From an uncultured Deferribacteres bacterium (GTDB lineage Bacteria > Zhuqueibacterota > Zhuqueibacteria > Zhuqueibacterales > Geothermadaptataceae): a DNA stretch of 27,039 nt. Below, piece after piece: positions 4,164 to 19,872 of the stretch. Positions within the stretch are counted from its first letter, which is position 1, and every line of letters starts with the position of its first letter. Under the pieces are notes generated by a model that ran no database searches, had not been told where the DNA came from, and worked only from the letters and a program-made list of their open reading frames with translations. The stretch lies in contig CAXHAT010000105.1 in NCBI GenBank assembly GCA_964014485.1, forward strand, positions 1 to 27,039. The letters run 5' to 3'. The translations under genes and the position numbers were made by a program.

Positions 4164-4224
4164 ATCAAACCTCCTGTTTTTGATGTGCTGAGAAGAAAGC
4201 AAGTTGTATGTTGCGTCGGGTTGG

Positions 4225-4253
4225 TTGACAAGCCCTGAGAAATTTTGTAGTTT
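4225..4253 (+). promoter_or_regulatory. Putative sigma70 promoter of the radical SAM gene
   Basis: TTGACA (4225-4230)-N17-TAGTTT (4248-4253), about 60 nt before the ATG at 4312. Confidence 0.55.
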
Positions 4254-4311
4254 TTCCAAGACGCAATATCCGGTAATAAAACATGAATCAAAGCAAGTGA
4301 CAAGCAATTCG

Positions 4312-5571
4312 ATGAGTTCGCAGAACGGCGCTGAAAAAAAGTACATTCCTTCCCTGATTTCCTGGAATCTCACCCAAAAATGTAATCTCAAATGTCCGCA
4401 CTGCTATATGGAAGCCGGGCGAAAAGCGGTAAATGAGTTGACGACCGACGAGTGCATCGGCTTGATCGATGAAATGAAATCGCTGGGCACGGAAATGGTC
4501 ATCCTCACCGGCGGCGAACCGCTGCTTCGGCGCGATATTTACGACATTGCCAGCTACGCCTCATCGCAAGGTCTGTGGGTGGTGATGGGCACAAACGGCG
4601 TGCTTTTAAACGATAAGGTTGCGCAGAGAATGCTGGAGTGCGGCGTAAAAGGCGTTGGCATTAGCATCGACTCCATCGATCCGGAAAAACACAATTCTTT
4701 TCGCGGCGGCCCGAATGCGTGGGAATACTCCGTGCGCGGTTTGGAGGTTGCACGCAAGCACGGCCTACAGGTTCTGGTGCAAAGCACGGTGATGGAATCG
4801 AACCAGGATGAAATTCCGCAACTTATTGAATTCGCCCGAGAAAAAGGCGCATGGTCGTTCAATCTTTATTTTCTCGTCCAAACAGGTCGCGGGCAGGAAA
4901 TGAACGATCTTTCGCCGCAGCAAACGCACGACATGCTTTCCTATTTAGTTGACGTGCAGGACGATTTTCGCCCTATGCTCGTTCGCTCCAAATGCGCGCC
5001 GCAGTTCAAGCAAATTTCTTATGAAAAAGGTCGCGGCGGTCTCGAAAGCGGCGGGTGCATGGCGGGAACGCAATACTTGCGCATCACGCCAAACGGCGAC
5101 GTGACGCCTTGCCCCTACATGACCGAAGTGGCGGGAAATATTCGCGAGCAGAGTTTTACTGAAATTTGGAAAAATTCGGCTGTTTTAAACGATTTGCGCA
5201 ATCCGAATAAGCTAAAAGGACGTTGTGGCGCTTGTGAATTTAACGAGTTATGCGGCGGCTGTCGGTGCCGAGCATTTGCGGCGTACGGCGATTATCTCCA
5301 GGAAGATCCGGCCTGCCTTTACCAGCCTACCGGAGAGCCTTTGAAATTAGAAAATGGGCAATTTGAGTGGAGCGCAGAAGCGCAAGCACGCCTCGACCGA
5401 ATTCCCATCGAGTTTATCCGCAAAAAAGTAAAAAAAGGCGTGGAGGCGTTCGCGTTGCGAAACAATGTTTATTTGATCACGGCTGACACGATGAAAGATT
5501 CGCTTGCAGGGGAAGGGCGCACGGAAGGTTTTGCAGGCATGTCGCGTTTTTTCACAAAACCAGGGAATTAA
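4312..5571 (+). CDS. Radical SAM/SPASM protein, AhbD/NirJ-like, with C-terminal PCP_red-like domain
   Basis: WNLTQKCNLKCPHCY (CxxxCxxC), LTGGEPL, SPASM cysteines (GCMAG..PC..CGAC...CGGCR..DPAC), tail WSAEAQARLDRIP.EFIRKKVKKGVE. Start set at ATG 4312 downstream of the promoter. Confidence 0.9.
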   Translation: MSSQNGAEKKYIPSLISWNLTQKCNLKCPHCYMEAGRKAVNELTTDECIGLIDEMKSLGTEMVILTGGEPLLRRDIYDIASYASSQGLWVVMGTNGVLLNDKVAQRMLECGVKGVGISIDSIDPEKHNSFRGGPNAWEYSVRGLEVARKHGLQVLVQSTVMESNQDEIPQLIEFAREKGAWSFNLYFLVQTGRGQEMNDLSPQQTHDMLSYLVDVQDDFRPMLVRSKCAPQFKQISYEKGRGGLESGGCMAGTQYLRITPNGDVTPCPYMTEVAGNIREQSFTEIWKNSAVLNDLRNPNKLKGRCGACEFNELCGGCRCRAFAAYGDYLQEDPACLYQPTGEPLKLENGQFEWSAEAQARLDRIPIEFIRKKVKKGVEAFALRNNVYLITADTMKDSLAGEGRTEGFAGMSRFFTKPGN

Positions 5572-5582
5572 GTTTTGTCCGG

Positions 5583-6500
5583 CTATAACTTTATAGCCAG
5601 CGAAAAACGATGGCTATTGCCAAAATCAAAGTCCGCCGGTGAATAGGAATAATCGAAGCGGTAATTACCGGATTTTAAGCCCAAGCCCCCGGCCAGGCTT
5701 TGCGTTTCGTTCCCGCCTTGATAACCTAACCTGACGGCCACAACATCGTGTGGCAGAATTTCCGCGCCAAAATTGAAGATTGTCTTTGCGTCCAAAACGC
5801 TGCGGACGCTGGCGAATAAGTTGGGCGAGCTGTTGCCGAGCTTAAAATCAGGGGCGAAAACCAGACCGGCGCGCAAGTAGGTCGGCAACTTCACGTCTTC
5901 GGTGCGAAATTCTTCGACGCTGCCTAAATTGTGAATCGACGCCGCCAAAGCAAACGGACTTTCCGGCGAGGTTTTGTAGCGAACGCCAAGATCGACGCCG
6001 AAGCCGTTGGATGCGTAATTCAGGATTTTTTCCGCCAAATATTTAACCGTCACGCCGCCGTTCAGTTTTGAAGAAAACTGGCGCGCGTAACTCAAACCAA
6101 ATGCAATGTGGTGCGAGGTTAATTCCGAGATCGGCTCTGCCGAAGGCCGCGTGCGCTGCATAATTCCCGGCACGTTTTGCAAGAGCAGTGAAACGCCCCA
6201 AAACGATTTCCCGCCGCCGAATTTTACCGCGACAAAATCATTCGTAATATCTTGCAGCCATTCGGAATGCGACAAATACAGTTCGCCGCCGGAAGAACTG
6301 GCGAGATTCGCGGGATTCCAGAACGTCGCTTCAGCGCCGGTTGCATCCGCAACGTGCGCCTCCGCCAAAGCCGCGCCCCTGCCGCCAATGCCAATTTTGA
6401 GGAAAGACAACCCAGTGTTGCCGGCGTCGCCGGTTTGTGCAAACGCTTGATTTAAAAGGAGAGAAACGAGCACTGCGGAACAAGAAAAATATTTTCGCAT
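5583..6500 (-). CDS. PorV/PorQ-family (FadL-like) outer membrane beta-barrel protein
   Basis: Signal peptide; FLKIGIGGRGAALAEA...FWNPA; amphipathic strands; C-terminal HRFSLAIKL. Confidence 0.85.
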   Translation of the reverse strand: MRKYFSCSAVLVSLLLNQAFAQTGDAGNTGLSFLKIGIGGRGAALAEAHVADATGAEATFWNPANLASSSGGELYLSHSEWLQDITNDFVAVKFGGGKSFWGVSLLLQNVPGIMQRTRPSAEPISELTSHHIAFGLSYARQFSSKLNGGVTVKYLAEKILNYASNGFGVDLGVRYKTSPESPFALAASIHNLGSVEEFRTEDVKLPTYLRAGLVFAPDFKLGNSSPNLFASVRSVLDAKTIFNFGAEILPHDVVAVRLGYQGGNETQSLAGGLGLKSGNYRFDYSYSPADFDFGNSHRFSLAIKL

Positions 6501-6544
6501 GATTTAATGTCTTTGTGAAGTGATTTTTGGGAAAAACTTTACAA

Positions 6545-6694
6545 AACGCTGAGTCGCAAAGGACGCTGAGTTCCGCCAAGAAAATTCAAGTGTGAGTTCA
6601 TTGCAGTTAAATCGCAAATGTGAGAATTCACAAGCCGAACTCTTATATTTTTTAAGAACTTCGCGAGGCTCTGCGAACTTTGCGTCTCTGCGTT
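6545..6694. repeat. Intergenic inverted repeat (AACGCAGAG.CGCAAAG.. type)
   Basis: 6545-6580 and 6659-6694 are imperfect 36-bp reverse complements built from 9-nt CGCWRAG units. Confidence 0.8.
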
Positions 6695-6730
6695 AAGCCT
6701 AAGCCGTAAGGTGCTGGCTTTCTTCAACTT

Positions 6731-7993
6731 TTAAAACTGAAACGACCACGAAAAAACATGCTCGCTCGAAATATCATCGCCCTGCATGACGAAAGCATAA
6801 TGCAGGAAAGTCAATCTTTTGCCAATGCTGAATTGATACGATCCGCCCGCCGTCGGGTAGCCGTTGCGTGCGCCGAGCCGCGCATTGATTTTGGGTGAAA
6901 CGCGATAGTCCGCGCCGAAATAAACTTTCGGATCGGTGACATTCGTCCCCTCGACGTCCGCCGCCAACAGCAGATCGTCAAGTAATCGCGTTGTTGCCAG
7001 ACCAACGCGCCAGGTTTTGGGAAATGGGCTGGTTGTTGTGCGCCCGCGGTCATAAATTTGATCCGTGTTCCAGTCGAACGACGCATTGATGTTTTTGTAA
7101 ACGCCGCCCAGCCAAACGCCTTCCGTCACTGTGACCATCGCGCCCAAGTCCACGCCGAACGCGCGCGCACCGACAGTCACGTCGCCGTCGCCGAGGCGGG
7201 GGAATCGATTCCAGAGAATGCGCGTGGTCAAGCCTATCGCGACTTTCTGATGGACGCGCAGACCGAAAGTAAAATTAAAAATGTTTTGGTTATTTGAAAA
7301 TGTATCGTAAAGCACGCCGTCGAAATCACGGCCTTCGATGTTATTGACGGAAGCATGAATCCAACTCAGCGACAGCCCGCCGCCCAACGGGCCTTTGCGC
7401 GGTTTGTTTTTAAGGCTGTCTGATTGGCTTGTTGAATCTTTTTTGGATTTTGGCCGAATCCCGGCGGAAAATCCGGCAAAGGCAAAGCGTCGGTCGAGCG
7501 AGAGCGCGCGCAAGGAAAGATCAACGCCGCGTTTTTCCATCATCGTGACAGCGGCGGGATTGTAAAACGCGCTTTCCGGGTTGCCGCCAACAGCCGTGTA
7601 AGCCCGTCCCATCGCCTCCGAACGCGCCGCGATTCCCATGCGCAAAACAGAGCCTGCGTAGCCGCCTTGAGCTTGGGCAAGCGTCGGGAGCATAAAGAAA
7701 AAGCAAAGAGCGAGCGAAGCGAAGCACAAAATTCCCCCTTTGAAGGAGGTTAGGGGGATGTTAATAGCAGCGCTCAAATTTTCCGAAAGCGACGCTTTTG
7801 TCATACCCGCGCAGGCGGGTACCCAGCTTTGGGGCGCTGTTGTCTGGATACCCGCCTGCGCGGGCATGACACAGTGGATTGAGCTCAGTTTTCTAAAGAA
7901 TCTACCCTTTAAAGGGCCTGGGGGAGCTATGTGCGCTTCGCGCTTCTTCCAAAATTTGAAAGTCCGTTTCAAAATTCTATTCTTCTTTTTCAA
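6731..7993 (-). CDS. PorV/PorQ-family outer membrane beta-barrel protein; start uncertain (TTG 7993, or repeat-supplied ATG 7867/7804)
   Basis: Mature part LRMGIAARSEAMGRAY...FYNPA, terminal HVFSWSFQF. The signal h/c region ILCFASLALCFFFMLPTLAQA lies after about 87 residues, most of them repeat-encoded. Confidence 0.8.
   Translation of the reverse strand: MKKKNRILKRTFKFWKKREAHIAPPGPLKGRFFRKLSSIHCVMPAQAGIQTTAPQSWVPACAGMTKASLSENLSAAINIPLTSFKGGILCFASLALCFFFMLPTLAQAQGGYAGSVLRMGIAARSEAMGRAYTAVGGNPESAFYNPAAVTMMEKRGVDLSLRALSLDRRFAFAGFSAGIRPKSKKDSTSQSDSLKNKPRKGPLGGGLSLSWIHASVNNIEGRDFDGVLYDTFSNNQNIFNFTFGLRVHQKVAIGLTTRILWNRFPRLGDGDVTVGARAFGVDLGAMVTVTEGVWLGGVYKNINASFDWNTDQIYDRGRTTTSPFPKTWRVGLATTRLLDDLLLAADVEGTNVTDPKVYFGADYRVSPKINARLGARNGYPTAGGSYQFSIGKRLTFLHYAFVMQGDDISSEHVFSWSFQF
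7731..7926. repeat. Nested palindromic repeats inside the 5' part of the PorV-like ORF
   Basis: TGTCATACCCGCGCAGGCGGGTACCCAG (7799-7826) / CTGGATACCCGCCTGCGCGGGCATGACA (7844-7871) are 26/28. They are flanked by two CCCTTT.AAGG..T.GGGGGA units (7731-7760, 7901-7926). Confidence 0.88.
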
Positions 7994-7999
7994 GATTCG

Positions 8000-9439
8000 T
8001 CAATCCATCACAATAAATTTTCCCCAATAAACGCCGTCGCCTTCCAGCGCAACGCTATAAAAATAAACGCCGTTCGCGACGATCTCGCCGCGATAATTTT
8101 GGGCGTTCCAGGTTTCGAAAAACGAGCCGTTCGCCGGACGGCTTTTTTGGCTGACCACGTCCGCGACTTTTGACATCGCGAAGTCGAAAATGCGAATGGT
8201 CACGCGCGTGTCGCTCAACGTGTTGTACTGAAATCGCAAGTGTCCGTCACCGCCAAGCTGGTTGTGGCGGGAGTGGGAAAACGGGCTGGGATAGGCGAAA
8301 GTGCGCGGTTCGTCGTCTTGCCCCGGCAGGCGTGTGCCGCGTTGAATTTCCCATGTAAAACCATCATCACGAGACACGGCCAGCCCGTCAGGACCGCCGA
8401 CAAAGAGCGTGTGATTGCTTGTCGCTCCTGCGCCGAAAAATTCATCTGACAGATAAAGATTGTTCGTCTCCGCGTCACGGATTTCGGGAAACTTCGCCCA
8501 GGTTTGGCCAAAATCCAGCGATTTAAACAAGCCTTCCTCCGCCGCGACGTAAGCGACGGAATCATCAAAACCAAAATTATGCGGGAAAGTGTTGTGCAGC
8601 GTGGTGTGCCAGGTAAAGCCGCCGTCGTTGCTGACGGAAACGCCGCGCACTTCGCTGGTATCGACGGCGTTGATGGTTGCCGCCCAAAGATATTCGCGCC
8701 CGTCGTAATTTTGGCTCGCCATTGCCACGACGAAATTGCCGGAAATCGGCGACGCTTGATTGCTGTGTTTAATGTTCGTCCAGGTTTCGCCGTTGTCGAG
8801 GGATTTGTTGATCCCGTCCGCCGTGCCGATCCACAGCGCGCCGTTGGCGCTGATTGCCGAGAACCCGCGATGGTTCAAATTGCCCAAAGGGTCAAACAAA
8901 AACGTGTCCGGCGGCACGACTTCCCACGTCTGGCCAAAATCGAATGTACGCTGAATGCCGCCGCCCCAGCTCGAGATCCAGACGGAGCCGTCATCGTGAA
9001 TGGCTACGTCAAAAGTGACGTTTTGCACCGGCGTCGGGCCGGGCTGTTCGACGTGCGTCCAGGTTTGACCGCCGTCTTCAGAATAGGACAAACCGCCGCC
9101 TGTCGGCAGTTCGCCCTCCGGCACAAGAGAATCGAACGCCGTGGAAACCCAAATCACCGCGTCGTTCACCGCCATCGCTGCAACGCCGCCTTGCCCGATG
9201 CCTTCCGCTTGCGTGAAAGTTTGCCACGAACGACCGTCGTCCCGCGAAACCGAAAGTCCTTCGCCGGTGCCTAGATAAATGGCGTCGTTATGCACCAAAA
9301 TATCGACGATTGAATTCGAGGCGATTCCTGTCTGCGCTTGCGTGAATTTTTGTTCGGTTCGAAAAACGCGTCCTTTTTGCGCCGAGACTTGCCCCGCCGC
9401 GAGAAGGACGATAAAAAGAAGCCAATTTATTTTCTTCAT
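8000..9439 (-). CDS. Secreted BNR/Asp-box beta-propeller protein with C-terminal FlgD-Ig/T9SS-like sorting domain
   Basis: Signal peptide; seven S/T-x-D-x-G-x-T/S-W boxes; C-terminal AYPSPF..VTIRIFD..WN....G..VANGVYFY..GKFIVMD. Confidence 0.85.
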   Translation of the reverse strand: MKKINWLLFIVLLAAGQVSAQKGRVFRTEQKFTQAQTGIASNSIVDILVHNDAIYLGTGEGLSVSRDDGRSWQTFTQAEGIGQGGVAAMAVNDAVIWVSTAFDSLVPEGELPTGGGLSYSEDGGQTWTHVEQPGPTPVQNVTFDVAIHDDGSVWISSWGGGIQRTFDFGQTWEVVPPDTFLFDPLGNLNHRGFSAISANGALWIGTADGINKSLDNGETWTNIKHSNQASPISGNFVVAMASQNYDGREYLWAATINAVDTSEVRGVSVSNDGGFTWHTTLHNTFPHNFGFDDSVAYVAAEEGLFKSLDFGQTWAKFPEIRDAETNNLYLSDEFFGAGATSNHTLFVGGPDGLAVSRDDGFTWEIQRGTRLPGQDDEPRTFAYPSPFSHSRHNQLGGDGHLRFQYNTLSDTRVTIRIFDFAMSKVADVVSQKSRPANGSFFETWNAQNYRGEIVANGVYFYSVALEGDGVYWGKFIVMD

Positions 9440-10947
9440 TCAGTAACCACTAATCGTTTGACCACGGTTGCGCTTTCCAACCCGGAACGGTCGCGCGCAA
9501 CAAATTCAAATCGAAATTCTCCCAGCAATGCGGTTGACGGAATTTGCGTAACGATAGTAAAAACGCCGTCGTTCGCCGTCTCGTCGCCGTTGAAGCCGTC
9601 GTCGAAAAGCGTAAAAGGATTGCCCGCCGCAGGCTGCCCGTCCGGACGAATGCTATTAAAAAATACGTCTTGAATATCCGCCGCCCCGTTCGGATCGACG
9701 ACGCGCGCCGTCACCGTTAATAACCTCGCTCCGGCAAGCGGGCGCTGTACCGTGTCCGGCGCTGAAACGCTCAAAATCACCGGCGTGTTCGGATCGAGAA
9801 TCGGCGTGACGACGATGGTGCGCAATTCTTCACGTGAACGATTTCCCGCTGCGTCTTCCGCAATGATCGCGAGCGTCATAAAATCCGCGTTATTTTGAAA
9901 ATCAGAGCTTTGCAAATTCACCCCAAAAACGCCGTTTCCGGCAACGCCGTCGTCATTCGTGCCATCGTCGCGTAGTGCGCCGAGAAGCAGAGCGTCGGCT
10001 GGCGCGGGGGGCAAGATGCGGTAACGCACTTCCTGAACGTCGTTGTTCGGATCGTCAATTGTGGCGAGAATTTGCACTTGATCGCTCGCGTCACTGCGAA
10101 CGGTGTCGGGGAAAACGATTTCGCGCACCGTGGGCGCCTGCGCGTCAAAATAGAAATTGATGACGCCGGGCAAGGCGCGATTGCCTTCATCGTCCTGAGC
10201 GGAGACGCGAAGCGTAAAAACGCCGCGCGCCGAACCAAATTCGCTCAAATTGAGCGTGCCGCGATAAAGCCCGATGTTGCCGCTGACGCCGAACAACTCG
10301 AGCGTTTTGGAAAGCAGCGGAGTCGGCGCGGCGGGCGGGAAAATCGCGTAAGAAATTTGAGAGATGTTGCCGACACCGTCATCGTCCGAAACAAAGGCGG
10401 ACAGGACGGCTTCGTCGGGCAAGCTGGTAAAAAGACTGTCGGGCAGGGTGATTTGCAAAATCTCAGGCGTTGCGCCGGGCGAGCCTTGTTCAATGATAAT
10501 TTGGTATGGGCCGCCGTCCGCGATGTTGCCGTTCTGGTCCGCCGCCTGAATGATCAAGGTCCCGATTCCGGACTGGTTTTGCCAAGTCGCGCCGGGAATT
10601 TTGACGACAAACTGGCCGTCGTTGGCAAGAATATCGCCGTCCGCGCCTTCGTCACGCATTTGAAAGCTTGTGCTTTGATTGTTCTGGCTGGTTGCTTCCA
10701 AAATCACCGAAGCAATATCCGAAACGCCCTGAGGATCAGCGACGCGAACCTGAAACAAGCGGCCGGCTGGATCATCGAGAAAAACTTTTTCCGGGCCGGT
10801 GAATTCTTCAATGGTTGGCGATTGCTCGACGGCGACTTCGACTGGATCGCCGTTGCAGGCAAGGATTGTGAGCGCTGAAACAAGAAGAGTAAGCAGGAAA
10901 GGATAGACAGCCAGAGATGATTTGTTTGAGAATTTATTTGTAGTCAT
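9436..10947 (-). CDS. Lipoprotein with four Ig-like repeats carrying choice-of-anchor-X-like motifs
   Basis: Lipobox TILAC; motifs MRDEGADGDILANDGQF, LRDDGTNDDGVAGNGVF and LFDDGFNGDETANDGVF; ATGA overlap with the next gene. Start ATG 10947 preferred to TTG 10977. Confidence 0.8.
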   Translation of the reverse strand: MTTNKFSNKSSLAVYPFLLTLLVSALTILACNGDPVEVAVEQSPTIEEFTGPEKVFLDDPAGRLFQVRVADPQGVSDIASVILEATSQNNQSTSFQMRDEGADGDILANDGQFVVKIPGATWQNQSGIGTLIIQAADQNGNIADGGPYQIIIEQGSPGATPEILQITLPDSLFTSLPDEAVLSAFVSDDDGVGNISQISYAIFPPAAPTPLLSKTLELFGVSGNIGLYRGTLNLSEFGSARGVFTLRVSAQDDEGNRALPGVINFYFDAQAPTVREIVFPDTVRSDASDQVQILATIDDPNNDVQEVRYRILPPAPADALLLGALRDDGTNDDGVAGNGVFGVNLQSSDFQNNADFMTLAIIAEDAAGNRSREELRTIVVTPILDPNTPVILSVSAPDTVQRPLAGARLLTVTARVVDPNGAADIQDVFFNSIRPDGQPAAGNPFTLFDDGFNGDETANDGVFTIVTQIPSTALLGEFRFEFVARDRSGLESATVVKRLVVTE

Positions 10948-10975
10948 GCGTTGTAATAAAATATCTGGCGCCGCC

Positions 10976-11073
10976 AAAGCAAACTGAAGTTTGAACTACA
11001 AACCACAGAGCATCCGACAGTTCTGAGCGTAAAGCAAGCACTGTCGTTTGTAGTTCAAGCTTTAACTTGTTTT
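10976..11073. repeat. REP-like inverted repeat (GTAG-type)
   Basis: Perfect 13-bp TTGAACTACAAAC (10991-11003) / GTTTGTAGTTCAA (11046-11058), extending imperfectly to about 28 bp. Confidence 0.8.
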
Positions 11074-11154: not shown

Positions 11155-12150
11155 TCAAAACAGATTTGCAATCTCAATGCGCCCGATCTTGATTTTGTTA
11201 TGATTCGAACGTTCCGGCGCGTGAAATTTGTTTAGAGAATGCAACTTGTCTTCAGTGATCAAATCCAATTTTCGGAGAATTTCACACGCAACGGCTGGGG
11301 CGGCGCGATTGCCGCCGTCGCCGATTTTTACCGCCAACCCAATTGGTTCCGGCGTTTTCAGCGCGACGCATTGCATGCCTTCCGCGCCGATTTTGGTGAC
11401 CGCGCTTCCATCCATAGTACGCATAAACGCCGTATCAAAGCGATTCGTTCCCGCAACCATTTCCGGATGTTGCAACATACATTGAAAACTGTGATGAGCC
11501 TGAGAAGACGTTTTTGCCAAATTCGCGTACATTTGCGCGGCGTTTTTGAGCGGCATATTAAAAACCGGCGCGGTGCAGCCGTCAATCGCCACGCCGATTT
11601 TCAATTTGGAAAAATGTGAAGTGCGAGAAACCCATTCCAGGATTTCTTGCTGGTGCGGATGAGCCGGAGAAAGATAGTTTTCAATCGGCCAATTGTGAAA
11701 TCGGCAGGCGGCCAACATGCCAACGTGTTTTCCTGAGCAATCGCTTTGCAACGGCGAGCGTTCCCCTGTTTCCGGGACGCAATCATAATCGACGCCCATC
11801 GGACGATGCGTTCCGCATTGCAAGGCATTCGCGGGAACGCCAATTTTGTCGAGCATGGATTGCGCCGCCGCGACGTGAAAATCTTCGCCGTTGTGCGAGG
11901 CGCAAATCAACGCAAATTCGCGATTTGTGAAGCCAAAATGATCCGCAATTTTATGTTCGATCAACGGCGTGGCTTGCACAGGTTTCGCGGTTGAACGCAG
12001 AAAAACGCGCGTTTCCGGCTCGCCAATGCTGAAAATGATTTTGCCTGCGCCGTCCACGACGACGGCGTGACCGTAATGCTCGCTTTCGACGAACTCGCCG
12101 CGAAAGGCGCGCGCCAAAAGCGCCGGTTTTTGAGTGGTCTTTGTTATCAA
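11155..12150 (-). CDS. L-asparaginase II family (Rhizobium etli type) protein
   Basis: VESEHYG, RSTAKP, CASHNGEDFH, CSGKH, DGCTAP and KIGAEG motifs. TTG start. Confidence 0.9.
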   Translation of the reverse strand: MITKTTQKPALLARAFRGEFVESEHYGHAVVVDGAGKIIFSIGEPETRVFLRSTAKPVQATPLIEHKIADHFGFTNREFALICASHNGEDFHVAAAQSMLDKIGVPANALQCGTHRPMGVDYDCVPETGERSPLQSDCSGKHVGMLAACRFHNWPIENYLSPAHPHQQEILEWVSRTSHFSKLKIGVAIDGCTAPVFNMPLKNAAQMYANLAKTSSQAHHSFQCMLQHPEMVAGTNRFDTAFMRTMDGSAVTKIGAEGMQCVALKTPEPIGLAVKIGDGGNRAAPAVACEILRKLDLITEDKLHSLNKFHAPERSNHNKIKIGRIEIANLF

Positions 12151-12158
12151 AATAAAAG

Positions 12159-12383
12159 TTAACCTTGGCGGGACTTTTTTTCTGAAGAAATTCTGCTTGC
12201 GAGAACGGCGATTGCCGCTTCAACGTCTCGTACTCGCCGAAAGAAAACGGTTAGCTTCTGCAAGTTTTCAACCTTTTCGATTCTGTCAACCGCAGCGCGC
12301 AACTTGAGGCCTTCAGCGCCGAAGCGCGTTTCGAGAATGCTCATAACCTGTGTTCTTAAATCCTGCGCAGGTAATTCTTTCAT
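12159..12383 (-). CDS. Small hypothetical protein resembling the C-terminal helical domain of Rpn/DUF4351-type proteins
   Basis: 74 aa, fills the gap between co-oriented genes. ILETRFGAEGLKL...IEKVENLQKL pattern; family call by recall only. Confidence 0.55.
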   Translation of the reverse strand: MKELPAQDLRTQVMSILETRFGAEGLKLRAAVDRIEKVENLQKLTVFFRRVRDVEAAIAVLASRISSEKKSRQG

Positions 12384-12435: not shown

Positions 12436-13146
12436 TCAAAGTAACGCTTTAAAGTCACGCACGGCCTTTTCCATGCCGACGAGCAGCGCCTTGTTGATCA
12501 GCGCCGATCCGACAGTGAATTCTTCCGCTCCGGGGAGGCGTGCGAATTCCTGAATATTTTGATAATTCAAGCCGCCGGAAACGGAAATGCCAAGCCCCAG
12601 CTTGCTTGCTCCGGCGATGACTGAGCGCAGTCGTTCAAATTCATCCATAACGCGATTATAATTGTCAGCTCTGGCGTACGTCCGCGCGTTGAGTTCGATA
12701 TAATCGACGTTCAAACGCGCCGCCGCTTTTGCTTGTTGAACGTCCGGATCGATAAGGGTGCAAACCGCAATGTTATGTGCGCGCAGCATTTGGATAACTT
12801 CCGAAAAATAATCCAGATTTGTGCTGACGTCGACGCTCCCCGCCGCGGAAACGCCGTCGCGAACTGGTTTGACCAACGTGACCATGTCCGGCAAAACTTC
12901 AATTGCCAATTTGACCATTTCGTCTGTTGCAGTTATTCTCAAGGTGAGATGGGTTTTGACAAGCTCTTTCAGCAAATAAACGTCTTTTTCTTTGATGATG
13001 CGCCGATCTTCGCGAATGTGGCAGGCAATGCCGTCGGCGCCGGCAAGTTCGGCAACAACCGCCGCCGCGACCGGATCGGGCTCGGCGCTTCGGTTCATTT
13101 CTCGAATCGCCGCGATATGATGGACGGCTACGCTTAAACGCGCCAT
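12436..13146 (-). CDS. pdxJ: Pyridoxine 5'-phosphate synthase (PdxJ) homologue with degenerate active site
   Basis: EPDPV.AA..AE.AGADGI..HIREDRR, IDPD..Q..AA, GLNY.N and ALLVGM..AV align over the full length with PdxJ, but many catalytic residues differ. Confidence 0.88.
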   Translation of the reverse strand: MARLSVAVHHIAAIREMNRSAEPDPVAAAVVAELAGADGIACHIREDRRIIKEKDVYLLKELVKTHLTLRITATDEMVKLAIEVLPDMVTLVKPVRDGVSAAGSVDVSTNLDYFSEVIQMLRAHNIAVCTLIDPDVQQAKAAARLNVDYIELNARTYARADNYNRVMDEFERLRSVIAGASKLGLGISVSGGLNYQNIQEFARLPGAEEFTVGSALINKALLVGMEKAVRDFKALL

Positions 13147-13231: not shown

Positions 13232-14365
13232 TTATTGGACGCTAGCGATCTGTTTTTGATTTCGTAAGTCCCGCACAGTTACAAATTGAAATCCTTGCTC
13301 CTGCAATTGCGGAATGAGCTTTTCCAAAGCCGCCAGCGTGTTTGGCCGAGGATGTCCAATGCCGATGGCGACGCCGTTCGCGCGTGCAATTTCAGCAAGC
13401 TTGTGAATTTTTTTTTCGATCGCTTCCTGCTCATCGACTGGATCGAGAAAAATGTTGTTTCTCAAAGACTGCACGCCCAATGAGACGGCAATGTCGTAGG
13501 CTACCGAGACGGAGGACGTTCGACTGTCAACGAACAAAAAATTCGGCGCGCTGATCGCGCTCAACGCCGCAAGCATCACCGAACTGTCCGCCGTCGCCTT
13601 TGATCCCATGTGGTTGTTCAAACCAATCGCAAAAGGCACGGCTTCAACAGCTTTTTTCATCCGAAGTTTGATTTCTTCGGCTGGCATGGAGGTCAACAAT
13701 GTGAAGCCGTCCTTTTCGACGCGCGCGTTCAACGGCTCCATCGGCATGTGAACTATAATCGTTTTTTTTCTGGCGTTCAGTTCTTCCGCCAGACTTTTGG
13801 AAAACGGCAGGCCCGGGATAATTGCATAGGTAATTGGGACTGGAAAATCGATAAAGCTGCGAACGACGCCGTTTTTGTTGTAGCCGAAGTCATCGATAAG
13901 AATTGCGATGGCCTTGTCGCCAATTTTTTCGCCGTACACAAAGCGCACTGTTCCGGCCAGTCCGCGATCAGTTTCAAAACGCAATTCCATGCCGTCTGTC
14001 AGCGCGTTTTCAGCCCCGACAATGGAGGACGCCCCGCTGGCTTTCAAAACGGCGTATGCTTTTTGATAATACGGCAGGAGCGCTTGTCCGTGCTTGAAAT
14101 TCGCTGTCAGCACATTGTTTTTAAATTCAAATTGCTCCGCCGGTACGCCGTTTTGCCGCAGCGCTCGGGTGACTTTTTCAAAAACCAGCGGTTGAGTAAC
14201 GCCGCCGGTTGGATTCTCCGCCGCTACGCTTCTGTTCGTGTCCGAGAGAAAATCCTTTGCTGAAATCAAAATGAGCGCTACGAGGCTGACGCAAGCCATG
14301 AAGACCAGCAGTCGAGCTTGCCCCGCGGAATTCTTTTTTTGATTTTTTTGAGTACGTCTTGCCAT
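13232..14365 (-). CDS. Divergent polysaccharide deacetylase family protein (YibQ-like), N-terminally membrane anchored
   Basis: IAILIDDFG, HMPMEP, GLNNHMGS, FVDSRTS, FLD and IGIGHP motifs. Confidence 0.93.
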   Translation of the reverse strand: MARRTQKNQKKNSAGQARLLVFMACVSLVALILISAKDFLSDTNRSVAAENPTGGVTQPLVFEKVTRALRQNGVPAEQFEFKNNVLTANFKHGQALLPYYQKAYAVLKASGASSIVGAENALTDGMELRFETDRGLAGTVRFVYGEKIGDKAIAILIDDFGYNKNGVVRSFIDFPVPITYAIIPGLPFSKSLAEELNARKKTIIVHMPMEPLNARVEKDGFTLLTSMPAEEIKLRMKKAVEAVPFAIGLNNHMGSKATADSSVMLAALSAISAPNFLFVDSRTSSVSVAYDIAVSLGVQSLRNNIFLDPVDEQEAIEKKIHKLAEIARANGVAIGIGHPRPNTLAALEKLIPQLQEQGFQFVTVRDLRNQKQIASVQ

Positions 14366-14377
14366 GTTCAATCGGTG

Positions 14378-14971
14378 TTAATTGCCAAAAAACGCCTTTA
14401 AGCGACTCCAGCTTTGTCCAGAGTCGCTCGGCAAATCTTCCCATCGGTGAATTGACCAGTCGCCAATATTGTCGGTGTTCATGAAAAAACGCGCTTGTCC
14501 GGCAAAAAGCGCCGGTATTTCCTGGCTTTGCCGTGTGTGATGCACGCGGAGCGTATAGTTTTCGATAAAGACTGCCGAGTCGGCGGAAATTGTGGTTTGC
14601 ACATTCCTAAAGGTAAGCAATCGAAGCGAATCATTCGGCACAAAAGCGCGCAATTGGCTAAAATAGAAACGCTCATTTTCTCTCGCCCAAGTATCAAAAA
14701 CGCCGGGGTTTTCTGTCGCGACGCTTTGGTCCGGAATAAAGGCGAAGTCGCGAGGATTTCGAGCGGGATCGCTCAAGTTTCGCAAGTAGTTTTCGATATT
14801 CTGTTCCAGAACGGCGTTTTTTAAGTTTTGCAAAACCACTTCCGGCGTGCGCGGCGGTATAAATTGCACCCCGCCCGCATCCGGCTGCTCAGGTTCGCGC
14901 GTCGAAAAAGGATTTGTGCAAGCCAGTATAAAAGGAATAAAGAATTTCAGAAGTATCAATGGATTTTTCAT
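14378..14971 (-). CDS. Hypothetical lipoprotein (possibly NTF2/SnoaL-like fold)
   Basis: Lipobox FILAC followed by TNPFSTREPEQP; 197 aa; tight spacing with its neighbours. Confidence 0.75.
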   Translation of the reverse strand: MKNPLILLKFFIPFILACTNPFSTREPEQPDAGGVQFIPPRTPEVVLQNLKNAVLEQNIENYLRNLSDPARNPRDFAFIPDQSVATENPGVFDTWARENERFYFSQLRAFVPNDSLRLLTFRNVQTTISADSAVFIENYTLRVHHTRQSQEIPALFAGQARFFMNTDNIGDWSIHRWEDLPSDSGQSWSRLKAFFGN

Positions 14972-14997: not shown

Positions 14998-17028
14998 TTA
15001 GCGCAGAAGAAGCATCTTTCTGACAGACGAGAATTCCTCGGTTTGCATTCTGTAAAAATAAACGCCGGAAGGCGCTTCGGCGCCCGATTCGTCACGACCG
15101 TTCCAGAGCACTTCATGCACGCCCGGTCGAAAAGTTTCTTCGGCTAAAACGGCAATACGTTGACCAATGCCGTTATAAATTTCCAGAACAACTCTGGCCT
15201 GTTTTGGGACGCTGAATGAAATCAAGGTTTCGGGGTTGAACGGGTTAGGATAGTTTTGCGAAAGCGCGAACTCTGTGGGCGAAATTGGCGGTTTTTCATC
15301 TTCAACGGCAGTGGCGAGCGTGATGTCGGCGAGGCTGCGCGGCAAGAGCTGGTAGCCCGAGCTGTACGGCTCCGAAGTATCGAACTGTCCGATCACGCCT
15401 GTGATATCAACTGCATTGGCCGGGGCCGTTGTACCGTCGATATTGGTGTCACCGTCAATGCGCATTTGAGCTGACCCCGTCGCGTCGGAAATCGTCAGAT
15501 TCGCTGATGCGCCGCTGGCTGGATATTGCCCTGAAATAGTCGCCCCGAAAACCGTCACGAGCTTGCCTTCAAAAGCTTCGCCGCGTACGGCAATGTCCTC
15601 GGCGGTAACCTGTATGCTTTCCGGAAACGAACTGGAGCTAAGTCTTGTGACAGTGTAGGGAATCAATTCGGTCAAACCGTTGAACAAGCTGACTACGCCC
15701 GTTACTTCAAATTCCAGCGCAACGCCAGGGATGGTTTTGTCGGTAAACAATGAGCCGAAAACGGCGACGCCGCCCGTCTCATCTTGAATATACCCGGGGC
15801 CGCCAAACTCACGCCCGACCGTCGCGACGCCGCGCACAGTCACGTTTGCGCGCCCGAGAAAAGTCGGCACGCCGTTTTGTAAAACCTGGCGCAATTCAGA
15901 AATCGGGGTAACCGGATTGGCGGGCGGCGTGTATTCGCCGGACGAATTGACCCAGATTGGGCTCGACCATAACAAATCAGTATCGGCCTGGACAATTTTT
16001 ACAAAGTAAAACGTTTCGCCAAACGCTTCTTCGTCAGCAATCTGCCAGTTGAAACTGTTGCCTTCGGGAAAAAATATTTCCAGCAATCGGTTGTTTTTGT
16101 AGAGCTGCACGGAAAGGAAATTGTTTTGCGCTTGCGCCGCGATCTCAAAATCGACGCGATTGTCGTCATTGTCAAATTCTTCGCCCATCCAATTCCCGTC
16201 AGCCGTAAATTTGGTTAGAAAGATTCGGTCTGTCGCGGGCTTGGTCTCGAACGCGTAAGTCCGGCGATTTCGGATTGCGTCCAGGATTTTAGGCTTTGTC
16301 AGACTATCAGCGAGAACGCCGGTCAAATAAATTTTGTTTCCTGAAGACAAGCGGTTTCCATAAGCGCCGGCATGATTGTCCTGATTGCCGGTCGCGCCTA
16401 CATGCCAGCCTTTTTCAAGCGCCTGCAAGTAATACCTTTCAAAATCGCCAGACCTGAATCCACTGAGAACCTCGATGGCGTTCATGTTCAAATCGGCGGA
16501 CTCAAAATAATCGAGATTGAGAAAATTACTGTTGCCGTTGTCCGTGCCCGGGTGGTTAAATTGGCCGTTCAGATCATTGTCGATCAAGAATTGGTAGGCG
16601 TTCTGCAAATTGAAGCGCGTGTTGGCGTCGCCCGGATCGTCTGCTCGCGTCAAGGGCTCGAAAATATTCATGTGGCCGTAGCCCGTACCGCCGAGGCTGC
16701 CCAATTCCTGTCCTGCAATCGCAACAAACGTCAGCGCCGGATCATCATAAACCGCCGCAGCCGAACGTACGTCTTGGAAGTTCGTTTCGGACAAGCCGTT
16801 GGTATGATCGGTCAACGCCATGAAATCAATATTGGCGACAGTTCTGGCGTAGTCAAACGCAGCGGCAGGGTTTTTAGCGCCGGTCTTGCTGTCATGAGAA
16901 TAAATAGAGTGCTGGTGCAGGTCGCCAAAGTAAATGCTGTAATTTTGACTGAACGAATTTTGGGGCAAAATAAACATAAGCCCCGCTGAAAAAAAGAATC
17001 TGGCAAGTCGTCTCATCCTATCCGTCAT
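14998..17028 (-). CDS. Secreted PHP-type (CehA/McbA family) metallohydrolase with OB-fold-like modules and a C-terminal T9SS type A/FlgD-Ig sorting domain
   Basis: YFGDLHQHS, TDH, QFNHP and NQDNH metal-binding motifs; GYIQDETGG and ISDATG repeats; LSQNYPNPFNP...WNG....SGVYFY...KMLLLR. Confidence 0.88.
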   Translation of the reverse strand: MTDRMRRLARFFFSAGLMFILPQNSFSQNYSIYFGDLHQHSIYSHDSKTGAKNPAAAFDYARTVANIDFMALTDHTNGLSETNFQDVRSAAAVYDDPALTFVAIAGQELGSLGGTGYGHMNIFEPLTRADDPGDANTRFNLQNAYQFLIDNDLNGQFNHPGTDNGNSNFLNLDYFESADLNMNAIEVLSGFRSGDFERYYLQALEKGWHVGATGNQDNHAGAYGNRLSSGNKIYLTGVLADSLTKPKILDAIRNRRTYAFETKPATDRIFLTKFTADGNWMGEEFDNDDNRVDFEIAAQAQNNFLSVQLYKNNRLLEIFFPEGNSFNWQIADEEAFGETFYFVKIVQADTDLLWSSPIWVNSSGEYTPPANPVTPISELRQVLQNGVPTFLGRANVTVRGVATVGREFGGPGYIQDETGGVAVFGSLFTDKTIPGVALEFEVTGVVSLFNGLTELIPYTVTRLSSSSFPESIQVTAEDIAVRGEAFEGKLVTVFGATISGQYPASGASANLTISDATGSAQMRIDGDTNIDGTTAPANAVDITGVIGQFDTSEPYSSGYQLLPRSLADITLATAVEDEKPPISPTEFALSQNYPNPFNPETLISFSVPKQARVVLEIYNGIGQRIAVLAEETFRPGVHEVLWNGRDESGAEAPSGVYFYRMQTEEFSSVRKMLLLR

Positions 17029-17048
17029 TTCTGAATCCTTCCTGATTT

Positions 17049-17089
17049 AAAAAAATCGCCCTTCCAGCCTTTTGCTCTGAAAGGGCGAT
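17049..17089 (-). terminator. Rho-independent terminator-like hairpin
   Basis: Minus strand ATCGCCCTTTCAG-N9-CTGGAAGGGCGAT (13 bp, one G-U pair) followed by a T run. Confidence 0.7.
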
Positions 17090-17166
17090 CATAGTTTTTT
17101 TCTTTTTCAATGCTTGCGTCATCAATGGAAGCGCATTGTACCGCCGCCGCAAGCCATGCAAAGTCG

Positions 17167-17556
17167 TCATTTTAGTCGTTCTAGTCGGCCTTTTCGTCGA
17201 ACGATATTCTTATAGTCCCACTGGATGTCGCGCGCTTTTGCGATCCAGCGCTCAAGATTCTGTGCGTTTACCTGATCGACTGATGTGTATCGGGCTTCAG
17301 CAGCCTTGAAGCTGCCTTCCTTTTTTAGCCCGTCTTCATCGAAAGATTGCCCGCTCCAGAAAAGGAGGCGTACGCAATTTTTTAATTTGCTGTATCCAAC
17401 AATCGGGTTGCCGTCGAGAAACCACACCGGGTGAGCGTGCCAGATTTTATTTTCCGCTTCAGGCAATCTTTGATCAATCTCTCTCGCTAACAGATTGCAA
17501 ATATCACGATCATCTGCTTCTTGAGATTTATTGTACTTGTCAACGTCAGGGTGCAT
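17167..17556 (-). CDS. DUF1801 (YdhG-like) domain protein
   Basis: LPEAENKIWHAHPVWFLDGNPIVGY...LLFWSGQSF; GTG start. Confidence 0.88.
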   Translation of the reverse strand: MHPDVDKYNKSQEADDRDICNLLAREIDQRLPEAENKIWHAHPVWFLDGNPIVGYSKLKNCVRLLFWSGQSFDEDGLKKEGSFKAAEARYTSVDQVNAQNLERWIAKARDIQWDYKNIVRRKGRLERLK

Positions 17557-17608
17557 TTCGATTTCCAGCTAGCTAGTCGATGGCAATTGCCGATAAATGG
17601 TGTGATTT

Positions 17609-17754
17609 TAGAGTGCATTTGGAAAGTCCAAAATTGTCATGCTGGAAGCATCTTTTTTAGACTTTTCCACCAAAATTTCTGGAACGTTCAAGCCTGGCGA
17701 TCTAAAAAGATTCCTCCGGAATGACAAGAAAGGAACTTTGTCAAATTCGCTCTT
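17609..17754. repeat. MITE/REP-like element: inner GTCAT..ATGAC palindrome inside an outer inverted repeat
   Basis: TTGTCATGCTGGAAGCATCTTTTTTAGA (from 17634) / TCTAAAAAGATTCCTCCGGAATGACAA (to 17727). Outer GAGTGCATTTGGAAAGTCC (17611-17629) / GGAACTTTGTCAAATTCGCTC (17732-17752). Confidence 0.75.
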
Positions 17755-18805
17755 ATTGCTCAATATCCGTCGATAGCTTGAAGCGTACAATTCGGTTGTT
17801 GCCAGTATCCGCGACGTAAAGGGTTTTGTCGAAAAAAGCCACGCCTTGCGGGTTTTTAAATTGCCGTTCGCCAGAGCCGCTCCCGCCGAACGATTGCAAC
17901 TCGCCGCCGCTAGGGGAAAATTTATACAAATAATTTGCCTCGGCGTCAACAACGTAAATATTGCCGATTTGGTCGACCGTCACGTCTTCCGGCAGGCTGA
18001 ATTTATCGGGCTGGAAAATCGCAAGATTGCCTTGCGCTGGACTCAGCCGTGCGACAAAGCCAAATTCACCGGCGGTTAGCCACTGCACTTTAAAATTATT
18101 TTGACCAACCATGCAAAAAATGAAATCTTGCGAAAAATCGCGCAAAGCCGTTACGCCGCTTGGCTCGGAAGCCGAAAGAATACCCAGTCCGTTTGGTTCC
18201 AAATTCACCGCGTTCGCCACACGGACGTCGAACTCTTCCGGGAAAATCAGGACTTGATTGTCCCGCGTCTGTTGACCTGTCGCGGTCACCAGGTAAGTCA
18301 GCCGGGCCGTGCCCTGAAACGGCAATATCTGCGAAGAAATGCCGGTAAATCGACGATCCGGGTTATCGACCTCTTCAAACACCAATTCCACCGGCGCGTT
18401 TGCAATATCATGCCCGTGCGCCAGAAGATTGATGCGGTAAATTTTATTGTCATTCGAAACGATGAGTAACCGGAGTTTTGAGTCTTGCGTCATCGCAACG
18501 GGGTGCGGGACTGGCTGAGACTGCCCGAGTATATTTCCGGCGAGATCGAGCATAACAATGCGGTCGTTTCCAGTATCGGCGATATAAACAAGCGGCTCGC
18601 GCCCGAGCAGAACGTCTTGCGGCGCATTGAAATCGTACCCAGCGTCGGAGTCCCAGTCCGGGCGAAGTTGTAAGTAGGTGGTATCGCTGACGGCGGGGAT
18701 GTTGGTGATATCGTCGGGTTGCTCCGGCGGGACAAACTTTTCAAAGTTGCACGCTGCTGTGAACGCGAAGAGAAGAGACGCAAAGCATGTAATATATTTT
18801 TTCAT
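17753..18805 (-). CDS. NHL-repeat beta-propeller lipoprotein
   Basis: Lipobox FTAAC; YIADTGNDRI, P.DVTVD..GNIYVVD and FKNPQGVA..LYVADTGNNRI. Confidence 0.9.
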   Translation of the reverse strand: MKKYITCFASLLFAFTAACNFEKFVPPEQPDDITNIPAVSDTTYLQLRPDWDSDAGYDFNAPQDVLLGREPLVYIADTGNDRIVMLDLAGNILGQSQPVPHPVAMTQDSKLRLLIVSNDNKIYRINLLAHGHDIANAPVELVFEEVDNPDRRFTGISSQILPFQGTARLTYLVTATGQQTRDNQVLIFPEEFDVRVANAVNLEPNGLGILSASEPSGVTALRDFSQDFIFCMVGQNNFKVQWLTAGEFGFVARLSPAQGNLAIFQPDKFSLPEDVTVDQIGNIYVVDAEANYLYKFSPSGGELQSFGGSGSGERQFKNPQGVAFFDKTLYVADTGNNRIVRFKLSTDIEQ

Positions 18806-18824
18806 TCGGAAATCGCAGTTTAGA

Positions 18825-19817
18825 TCAGAATTTTAGATTTGCTGAAAACCGATTGGCTGTGCCAAGCCTGCCGAACTCCGAATAGGAAAAATCGACGTGT
18901 AATTCAAAGGCGTTTAGCGGAATGCGCAAACCTGCGCCAAAAGCGTAGGATTCTTCCTCGACGTTAACTTTGTAGCCGCCGCGCAGAGAGAGCATTTTTT
19001 TCCAGCCGTATTCAACGCCGATGTTGACGTTTTCGGCGTTGTCGTTTGGATGATTTAATTGGATTGAAGTCGTGATCCGGCTCTGCTCATTATCGACGAC
19101 TTCAGTCGCGAACCCAACGCGGAAAACCGTCGGCGGCGCAAAATCCTGGAAAGCGTTGACTTCAATGTCATCTCTTTGCACCACAGTTCCAGACGGTTCA
19201 ACGTTCGTGCCGAAATTGACCACGGAAACGGCGAAGCGCGAGGAACCAAATCCTGTCCAATAATACGTGCCGAAATCGATCAGTACATTCCGCGCGTGAA
19301 TATCATCGAGAGTTTCGTCAACATATTTCACGGTTGCACCGAGGCTGAATTTATCGGTCATTTGGCGCGCGAAAGTCACCCCAAGTGAAATATCGCCGAA
19401 AGTCACGAAACGGCCGGTGCCGAACGGCTGGAACTCGGTCGTTTCTTCAAAATCGTCGGTGTGTAATGCGATGGCGCTCAAACCAATGACATTGACGCCG
19501 AATCGGCGCGTGTAGCCGATGAATTCGTGCTGTATGTCCACCGGCCAATCGACGTGAGCGATAAAAAGTTCGTTGTTTTTGGTCTGCGTAATACCGGCGG
19601 GGTTCCAGTACAGCGCCGAAGCGTCATTCGCCACTGCAACGAAAGATTCGCCCATGCCGACTGCACGTCCGCCAACGCCGATTTTCAAGAATTGAAACAT
19701 CGCCGTCCCGGCACGTTGGCTGCCAAGCACCGGGATGAGCTGCGCCGAGACATTTTGACCCAACGTCATCAACGCGACGGTTATGGAAAAAATAAAAAGA
19801 TTGCGCTTAAATTGCAT
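18825..19817 (-). CDS. PorV/PorQ-family outer membrane beta-barrel protein
   Basis: FLKIGVGGRAVGMGESFVAVANDASALYWNPAG; terminal NRFSANLKF. ATG 19817 chosen; TTG 19829 is possible. Confidence 0.88.
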   Translation of the reverse strand: MQFKRNLFIFSITVALMTLGQNVSAQLIPVLGSQRAGTAMFQFLKIGVGGRAVGMGESFVAVANDASALYWNPAGITQTKNNELFIAHVDWPVDIQHEFIGYTRRFGVNVIGLSAIALHTDDFEETTEFQPFGTGRFVTFGDISLGVTFARQMTDKFSLGATVKYVDETLDDIHARNVLIDFGTYYWTGFGSSRFAVSVVNFGTNVEPSGTVVQRDDIEVNAFQDFAPPTVFRVGFATEVVDNEQSRITTSIQLNHPNDNAENVNIGVEYGWKKMLSLRGGYKVNVEEESYAFGAGLRIPLNAFELHVDFSYSEFGRLGTANRFSANLKF

Positions 19818-19872
19818 AGTTTGACTCAATTTTTCAGTAGTTACGAACCACTGTTTTTTCGATCCGACTGCC

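Follow-up and report, generated by a model that had tools for sequence, protein, structure and literature searches.

PDX1.2 of Arabidopsis is a pseudoenzyme paralogue of PDX1/PdxS, a vitamin B6 synthase, and it acts through hetero-oligomers with its catalytic paralogue. In the other route to the vitamin, which depends on 1-deoxy-D-xylulose 5-phosphate (DXP), pdxJ serves as the signature gene according to the part of PMC9997740 available to us, and the same text describes PdxA2, a PdxA paralogue with a role outside vitamin B6 synthesis. As far as the partial texts of its matches go, a literature search found no description of degenerate PdxJ proteins; its pseudoenzyme matches concern PDX1.2 of the PdxS family. 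Here we analyse an open reading frame (ORF) that encodes a degenerate PdxJ homologue on contig CAXHAT010000105.1 of an uncultured Deferribacteres bacterium, a stretch of 27,039 nucleotides henceforth called the window. With moderate confidence, and judging from comparative sequence analysis, we favour the reading that this gene is a PdxJ descendant dead for the synthesis of pyridoxine 5'-phosphate (PNP) and kept by selection with a shifted role, while a second, type-2 pdxJ took over its former function. The genome that holds the window (G000; assembly of 8.4 Mb in 465 contigs, 97% complete) was compared within a set of 125 genomes of its class, labelled from G000 upward, with families labelled by f-numbers (G016 and G023 are unpublished and are included only in the canonical f2 counts; no conclusion depends on either).

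The window ORF is a full-length PdxJ-family triosephosphate isomerase (TIM) barrel. Its residues 3-235 match positions 1-233 of the 234-position PF03740 profile (226.5 bits, E 3.3e-67, cut-off 24.5), and its HMMER alignment to E. coli PdxJ (1ho1/1m5w; query 4-235, E 3e-44) contains no gaps. An AlphaFold2 model built on a 52-row alignment is a confident (beta/alpha)8 barrel, with a predicted local distance difference test (pLDDT) score of 95.0 and a predicted template modelling (pTM) score of 0.91, in which residues 91-110 are the least confident part (10-residue block means of 73 for residues 91-100 and 86 for 101-110). In Foldseek comparisons, this model matches the solved PdxJ structures 5dlc, 3gk0, 3f4n and 1ho1 with template modelling (TM) scores of 0.94-0.95 at 36-38% identity, and its fold neighbours are phosphate-binding barrels with varied chemistry.

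The preliminary description of this DNA had claimed, from an alignment by eye, that the catalytic machinery of the protein is replaced. This observation is confirmed: the HMMER alignment to 1ho1/1m5w contains each substitution listed, and the catalytic residues stay lost under a proper, gap-free alignment. Relative to E. coli PdxJ, VNIDH reads VAVHH, R20 is N, RRHI reads RRII, NLEM reads TLRI, VPEKR..TTEGG reads VKPVR..SAAGS, EIHTG reads ELNAR, AGHGL reads VSGGL and NIGH reads TVGS, while H12, H45, R47 and the motifs PDP, AGADGI, REDRR and GLNY are kept. The changed positions are near-invariant elsewhere, with the canonical residue present in 113-119 of the other 119 sequences among the 120 best database proteins. 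Scored over 19 sites, the window protein reads AHHNHRITRPRSAAENRGS against a consensus of NDHRHRHNEERTTEEHGHH and differs at 14. Because these sites came partly from the preliminary list, column sets independent of the query were also used. Fifteen of the 43 columns that are identical across 15 canonical E. coli-type and three type-2 PdxJ sequences are changed in the window protein. At the 12 universal sites common to both working subtypes (E. coli N9, R20, H45, R47, H52, N70, E72, T102, T/S103, E153, H193 and H216), its residues are A N H R I T R S A E G S; only H45, R47 and E153 are kept (3/12).

The mobile active-site loop, a role given to E. coli PdxJ residues 95-105 in the part of PMC10471632 available to us, has been rewritten from PEKRQEVTTEG to KPVRDGVSAAG. 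Together the replacements remove D11, E72, E96, E100 and E104 and add R70, K93 and R155; the net charge of the protein is -3 compared with -4 to -16 in 15 canonical orthologs, about 6 units above the canonical median. Neither database nor metagenome searches found another sequence with the pattern A7, H9, N18, I50, T68, R70, G191 and S214. Across 292 aligned family members, 20 proteins have R at the E72 position, and 17 of them also have G in place of H193. This pairing spans many 50%-identity clusters and could reflect convergence, structural compensation or an old subfamily.

A gene for PNP synthesis appears to be present elsewhere in the genome. The preliminary description had proposed searching for a second canonical pdxJ, pdxA and pdxS; the assembly holds a second, canonical-looking pdxJ and a single pdxA, and a search of it for pdxS found none. 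The second pdxJ belongs to the type-2 subtype. The end of contig C206 carries its larger part (243 bits over profile positions 35-233), and the N-terminal part is found where contig C177 ends. Over 202 residues the C206 fragment is 70.8% identical to the full-length type-2 copy of the sister lineage G001, with one downstream gene syntenic, and the G001 copy matches the solved PNP synthase 6w6a of Stenotrophomonas maltophilia (E 8e-62). Type-2 PdxJ differs from the E. coli enzyme at three of the positions considered here (D11N, H12K and H155Y) and keeps N9, R20, H45, R47, H52, N70, E72, T102, E153, H193 and H216; the subtype is a working form of PdxJ. The C177 end that carries the type-2 N-terminus (L003, 1-140) enters transposase-adapter-like sequence, translating as LIHISEPTRL, and Logan contigs matching the window likewise stop in adapter letters (at window positions 12811 and 12934). 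Since the C177 end runs into adapter-like sequence, the contig break is taken as technical, and the interruption of the type-2 pdxJ looks like an assembly artefact.

Degenerate PdxJ copies are not confined to this genome. The preliminary description had asked if a clade shares such changes, and indeed whole clades of relatives carry degenerate copies. PF03740 scores are bimodal across the class: 63 genomes have matches of 320-343 bits and three more have truncated matches of that kind, while all 52 genomes of families f3, f4, f7, f8, f11, f12 and f13 have one match each, at 154-245 bits. PdxS occurs in 51 of these 52 genomes, the one without it being G089 (90% complete), and the 72 genomes of the other eight families all lack it. 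The residues were read in 36 of the 52 low-scoring copies, and all are degenerate. In the PdxS-free families, degenerate copies were found only in G000 (226 bits) and G001 (259 bits), both with a type-2 PdxJ, and eight of the nine other genomes of the window's own family are canonical. A PdxA-family gene is absent from 28 of the 52 seven-family genomes, a census blurred by PdxA2-type paralogues (5/5 in f4, 13/14 in f12). In all, 54 of the 125 class genomes, G000 included, carry a PdxJ-family gene that is very probably incapable of PNP synthesis and yet passes the Pfam threshold. Both subtypes are canonical in five genomes (G022, G025, G048, G051 and G116). The E. coli-type copy of G116 (L085 on contig C103, 327 bits) has a K at the E72 position as its sole change among the 19 sites, and this single change may mark the start of the same process.

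The degenerate lineages differ from one another in what they put in place of the old active site. In f7, f8, f11, f12 and f13, the copies read (27 of 43 genomes) conserve C7, N9, N68, D50 and A70 (V in one) and usually add Q10, Q151, N153 and R191 at old active-site positions; they look like a distinct subfamily that has a pocket of its own. The copies of f3 and f4 each have their own residue set, and the group to which G001 belongs, here called the KDQ group, conserves K7, Q70, W96 and Y153. Six degenerate lineages carry differing residues at the same old active-site positions, and 26 invariant positions survive in all six, including G192 and G213 (E. coli G194 and G215) and charged residues. 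Of the best 150 representatives at 50% identity nearest to the window protein, 147 are full length; 8 or more of the 19 sites are changed in 62 of these, and 5 or more of the 12 universal sites in 60. These counts do not give a frequency, since the matches are ordered by similarity to a query that is itself degenerate and clustering gives extra weight to fast-evolving lineages. The best representative is only 47% identical to the window protein, and several are 331-782 residues long, which suggests fused forms.

A central question is whether the loss reflects focused change or general decay. The preliminary description had argued for focused loss, and a comparison of column classes with the canonical relatives bears this out. 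Among the 107 columns that are at least 95% conserved in 139 close canonical sequences, the window protein changes 41 and canonical relatives 0-3; these relatives change 0-3 of the 88 such columns outside the active-site set and none of the 19 within it. In columns of high, mid and low conservation, the window protein changes 9/43, 33/64 and 17/22, compared with 4-17, 13-29 and 10-17 in canonical relatives, and so stands slightly above their range in the mid class only. Its ordinary sites have evolved at about the rates of canonical relatives, and the excess is confined to formerly invariant columns.

We also simulated neutral drift of the G002 ortholog in 400 runs that modelled substitutions only. 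To reach changes at 9 of the 12 universal sites took a median of 412 substitutions, at which point none of the 400 frames was free of stops and the median identity had fallen to 0.32; at 5 of 12 changes, 18 of the 400 frames stayed open. The observed identity of the window protein to the G002 ortholog is 0.53. Therefore, either the sites were lost faster than under neutrality or the frame was long protected, and either implies selection. The marks of a decaying pseudogene, namely frameshifts or stops or a uniform relaxation over all classes of site, are not seen: 236 codons are open, excess change is found only in formerly invariant columns, and no frame stayed open among the 400 simulated.

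Measures of selection within the class are informative in places. The degenerate copies of G000 and G001 are 53% identical, with a nonsynonymous distance (dN) of 0.40 and a saturated synonymous distance (dS); this identity falls within the range of their presumably working neighbours, at 42% (deacetylase), 55% (orf197) and 47% (orf172), and below that of their type-2 PdxJ proteins (71%). The positional G+C (GC) content of the window gene is like that of neighbouring genes. The dN/dS check proposed in the preliminary description came out in part: degenerate copies of f4 have ratios of 0.07-0.15, far below 1, while dS is saturated or undefined for most pairs that contain the window gene, and YN00 gave values for two pairs only. 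The same description had named canonical close relatives together with a dN/dS near 1 as a sign of recent decay. Canonical relatives do exist, as most of the family is canonical, but a recent neutral decay fits poorly with the open frame and with the way in which the changes are distributed. A metagenome scan yielded eight further loci, at best 55-56% identical, in which the 19 sites are all canonical (one locus is truncated after the 14th). No RNA runs carrying the locus were found among the sequencing runs listed.

The placement of the window protein in trees depends on the columns used. In a tree of all columns the window protein joins f4 (support 96/99), a placement that carries a long-branch warning; its terminal branch is long, at 0.45-0.61. 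Without active-site columns, FastTree groups it with P0074 and the KDQ group, and IQ-TREE leaves it unplaced at the base of all degenerate copies. The approximately unbiased (AU) test rejects neither the arrangement that unites the query with KDQ and P0074 (p 0.445) nor the one that places the query outside all other degenerate copies (p 0.477), so the count of independent origins is not fixed. The simplest reading would be one release from constraint in a common ancestor of G000 and G001, because the two share the type-2 locus by descent.

As judged from its position, the window ORF represents the lineage's original E. coli-type pdxJ, inherited vertically and still in place (Table 1). The conserved cluster order is orf197, deacetylase, pdxJ and asparaginase II. 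Among 29 loci of relatives, the deacetylase gene stands next to pdxJ in 27 and the asparaginase II gene in 20; the deacetylase gene is also its neighbour in 5 of 8 metagenome loci. It adjoins the degenerate copy in 27 of 33 loci, with all six exceptions in f7. The window's neighbours are closest to those of its own family (deacetylase 48-49% and orf197 54-55% identity), and in none of the 125 class genomes do canonical and degenerate copies of the E. coli type occur together.

Table 1. Features of the window discussed in the text, with the evidence for each.
Feature	Position	Strand	Evidence or remark
PdxJ-like ORF, 236 aa	12436..13146	minus	ATG start; PF03740; degenerate active site; positional ortholog of E. 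coli-type pdxJ
Codon AGA, R70, replacing E. coli E72	12937..12939	minus	alignment
Residues 93-104, KPVRDGVSAAGS, counterpart of E. coli mobile active-site loop 95-105, heavily replaced	12835..12870	minus	alignment
Codon GGC, G191, replacing E. coli H193; neighbouring G192 (E. coli G194) kept	12574..12576	minus	alignment
G213-S214, equivalent to E. coli G215-H216; glycine kept, histidine lost	12505..12510	minus	alignment
Divergent polysaccharide deacetylase (PF04748, 234 bits), N-terminal membrane anchor; upstream neighbour	13232..14371	minus	Pfam, synteny
orf197, lipoprotein-like; first gene of the conserved cluster	14378..14971	minus	no Pfam match; syntenic homologues
Asparaginase II family (PF06089, 373 bits); downstream neighbour	11155..12150	minus	Pfam
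74-aa ORF between the PdxJ-like gene and the asparaginase gene	12159..12383	minus	seen only in G000

The 74-residue ORF has no Pfam or NCBIfam match and no tblastn match in any of the relatives' or metagenome loci compared; it may be a genome-specific insertion or not a gene. Further afield, window 4204-5571 (plus strand) encodes a radical S-adenosylmethionine (SAM)/SPASM protein with a C-terminal PCP_red (protochlorophyllide reductase 57 kD subunit) domain, an unusual pairing. The regions 5583-10977 and 14998-19829 (minus strand) show many envelope and type IX secretion features and encode PorV-like proteins, BNR/Asp-box and Ig-like repeat proteins and a 676-residue protein with a C-terminal sorting domain.

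In the sequence of events that we favour, the E. coli-type pdxJ of this lineage would have stopped being a PNP synthase once a second, 6w6a-like type-2 pdxJ was present. The window protein would thereby have lost PNP synthesis, and its gene would have been retained by selection for a different role. In this barrel superfamily the usual phosphate cradle is built from glycines of the G192/G213 type together with H45, R47 and E153. The window barrel would still fold, and its G192 and G213 at the ends of beta7 and beta8, with H45, R47 and E153, may keep that cradle. We infer that a pocket about 6 or 7 charges more positive would bind a phosphorylated small molecule, and that the protein would serve in binding or regulation and no longer as the synthase. 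A role linked to the neighbouring envelope deacetylase, a new enzyme activity and a scaffold role are each possible. The interpretation in the preliminary description, which proposed a regulatory subunit, a ligand sensor or a new reaction, is partly supported. Two features set this case apart: a second PdxJ subtype serves as the replacement route, and the change took place within a family in which canonical copies persist.

Among other explanations, the barrel might catalyse a different reaction on a phosphorylated substrate with new pocket residues, which we consider rather unlikely. The conserved new residue sets of the f7, f8, f11, f12 and f13 copies and of the KDQ group point this way, as do the varied chemistry of the phosphate-binding fold neighbours and the pairing of E72R with H193G, each of which needs two base changes. 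Yet the window's own pattern is unique among the sequences found, so that no conserved new catalytic set is demonstrable for it, and the differing residues of the six lineages fit a lifted constraint better than one new chemistry. That the protein is still a PNP synthase, or catalyses a close variant of that reaction with substitute residues, is very improbable. It does pass the Pfam threshold and two NCBIfam equivalog thresholds and keeps H45, R47 and E153, and type-2 PdxJ shows that D11N, H12K and H155Y are tolerated in a working enzyme; but nine of the 12 universal positions are replaced and the mobile loop is rewritten, at sites where canonical relatives never vary, the genome holds another pdxJ, and more than half of the seven-family genomes with degenerate copies (28 of 52) have no PdxA-family gene.

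The gene could also be a relic in slow decay, functionless after the type-2 takeover and merely unbroken so far. A singleton with its own pattern in a family where 8/9 other genomes are canonical, at the end of a long branch and at a locus without expression or polymorphism evidence, would look like this. We nevertheless hold a relic to be improbable: the frame is open although the neutral change needed for nine losses broke all the simulated frames (few stayed open even at five), ordinary columns run at canonical rates, positional GC content is like that of the neighbours, and comparable copies have stayed intact in the sister lineage G001 and in 52 further genomes. The preliminary description had put forward a regulatory subunit in a hetero-oligomer with a canonical PdxJ; this would be a pseudoenzyme like PDX1.2 that co-assembles with the type-2 PdxJ and modulates it, and here our doubts are greater still. 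PDX1.2 of the other B6 route is a precedent, a catalytic homologue is encoded in the same genome, and all degenerate lineages retain many of the charged invariant positions; PdxJ is itself oligomeric, an octamer in the part of PMC10471632 available to us. However, the window protein and type-2 PdxJ are only about 28% identical. Because 52 related genomes keep a degenerate copy without a canonical-scoring PdxJ match, the hetero-oligomer cannot serve as a general explanation, and it could apply in G000 and G001.

Several points weigh against our preferred reading, that of a PNP-dead PdxJ descendant retained by selection. The window ORF passes two NCBIfam equivalog models for PNP synthase, NF003625 (233 vs 190) and, narrowly, TIGR00559 (195 vs 192.75), and falls under the cut-offs of the other four. 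The type-2 pdxJ of G000 is split between two contig ends and not seen whole, and we assume that it is intact. Five genomes keep both subtypes canonical, which shows that change does not follow from redundancy alone. The Fisher tests on the 19-site set are biased by its partial origin in the preliminary list; the 43- and 107-column sets are unbiased. The replaced residues are those that presumably carry the catalytic roles, and conservation alone is shown here. The nearest proteins anywhere are 57-58% identical to the window ORF and dS is saturated, so that selection is not measurable on this lineage alone, and three DNA runs of one study that carry the locus show no variant letters among them, hence no ratio of nonsynonymous to synonymous polymorphism (pN/pS). 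The ligand-binding mechanism is a conjecture.

Since NF003625 and, narrowly, TIGR00559 are passed, automated annotation would name the window gene a PNP synthase. Database labels that call it a B6 synthase are probably wrong, because the residues are lost, a second, normal-looking PdxJ is present and the gene is apparently preserved for another job; predictions of pathways and auxotrophies in these uncultured lineages would then be wrong as well. The class forms a natural series, from genomes with canonical PdxJ only, through genomes with both subtypes canonical and one with a single glutamate changed (G116), to those with fully rewritten copies (G000, G001 and the seven PdxS-bearing families), and this series could show how an enzyme turns into a pseudoenzyme or gains a new job. 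A widely kept, conserved barrel beside an envelope deacetylase is a concrete experimental target. We also entertain, as an unlikely but consequential idea, that PdxJ of this class has a second, PNP-independent role tied to the orf197-deacetylase-pdxJ envelope cluster and preserved when the supply of pyridoxal 5'-phosphate (PLP) is replaced. In that case PdxS in the seven families and type-2 PdxJ in G000 and G001 would have taken over PLP supply, canonical PdxJ would moonlight, and the window would be a recent, separate case of an enzyme shedding its textbook activity and keeping a hidden one.

Set against known systems, the window protein resembles E. coli PdxJ (1ho1, 1m5w; PF03740; TIGR00559): it shares family, fold, length and the genomic place of the canonical orthologs of its relatives, and it keeps H12, H45, R47, E153, G194 and G215 (E. 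coli numbering). It differs in replacing N9, D11, R20, H52, N70, E72, T102, T103, E104, H155, H193 and H216 and most of loop 95-105. With type-2 PdxJ (6w6a, and its own second copy on C206/C177) it shares the Pfam family, both kinds of PdxJ being present in G000 and G001, at an identity of only about 28%. PDX1.2 resembles it in having descended from a vitamin B6 synthase, lost catalysis and been retained beside a working synthase, but PDX1.2 belongs to the PdxS family rather than to PdxJ, and a hetero-oligomer of its kind is impossible in the 52 relatives without a canonical-scoring PdxJ. PdxA2, as far as the available part of its source describes it, is likewise a B6-pathway family member whose B6 annotation misleads pathway calls; PdxA2, however, is an active enzyme of known chemistry, whereas the window protein is probably dead for PNP synthesis.

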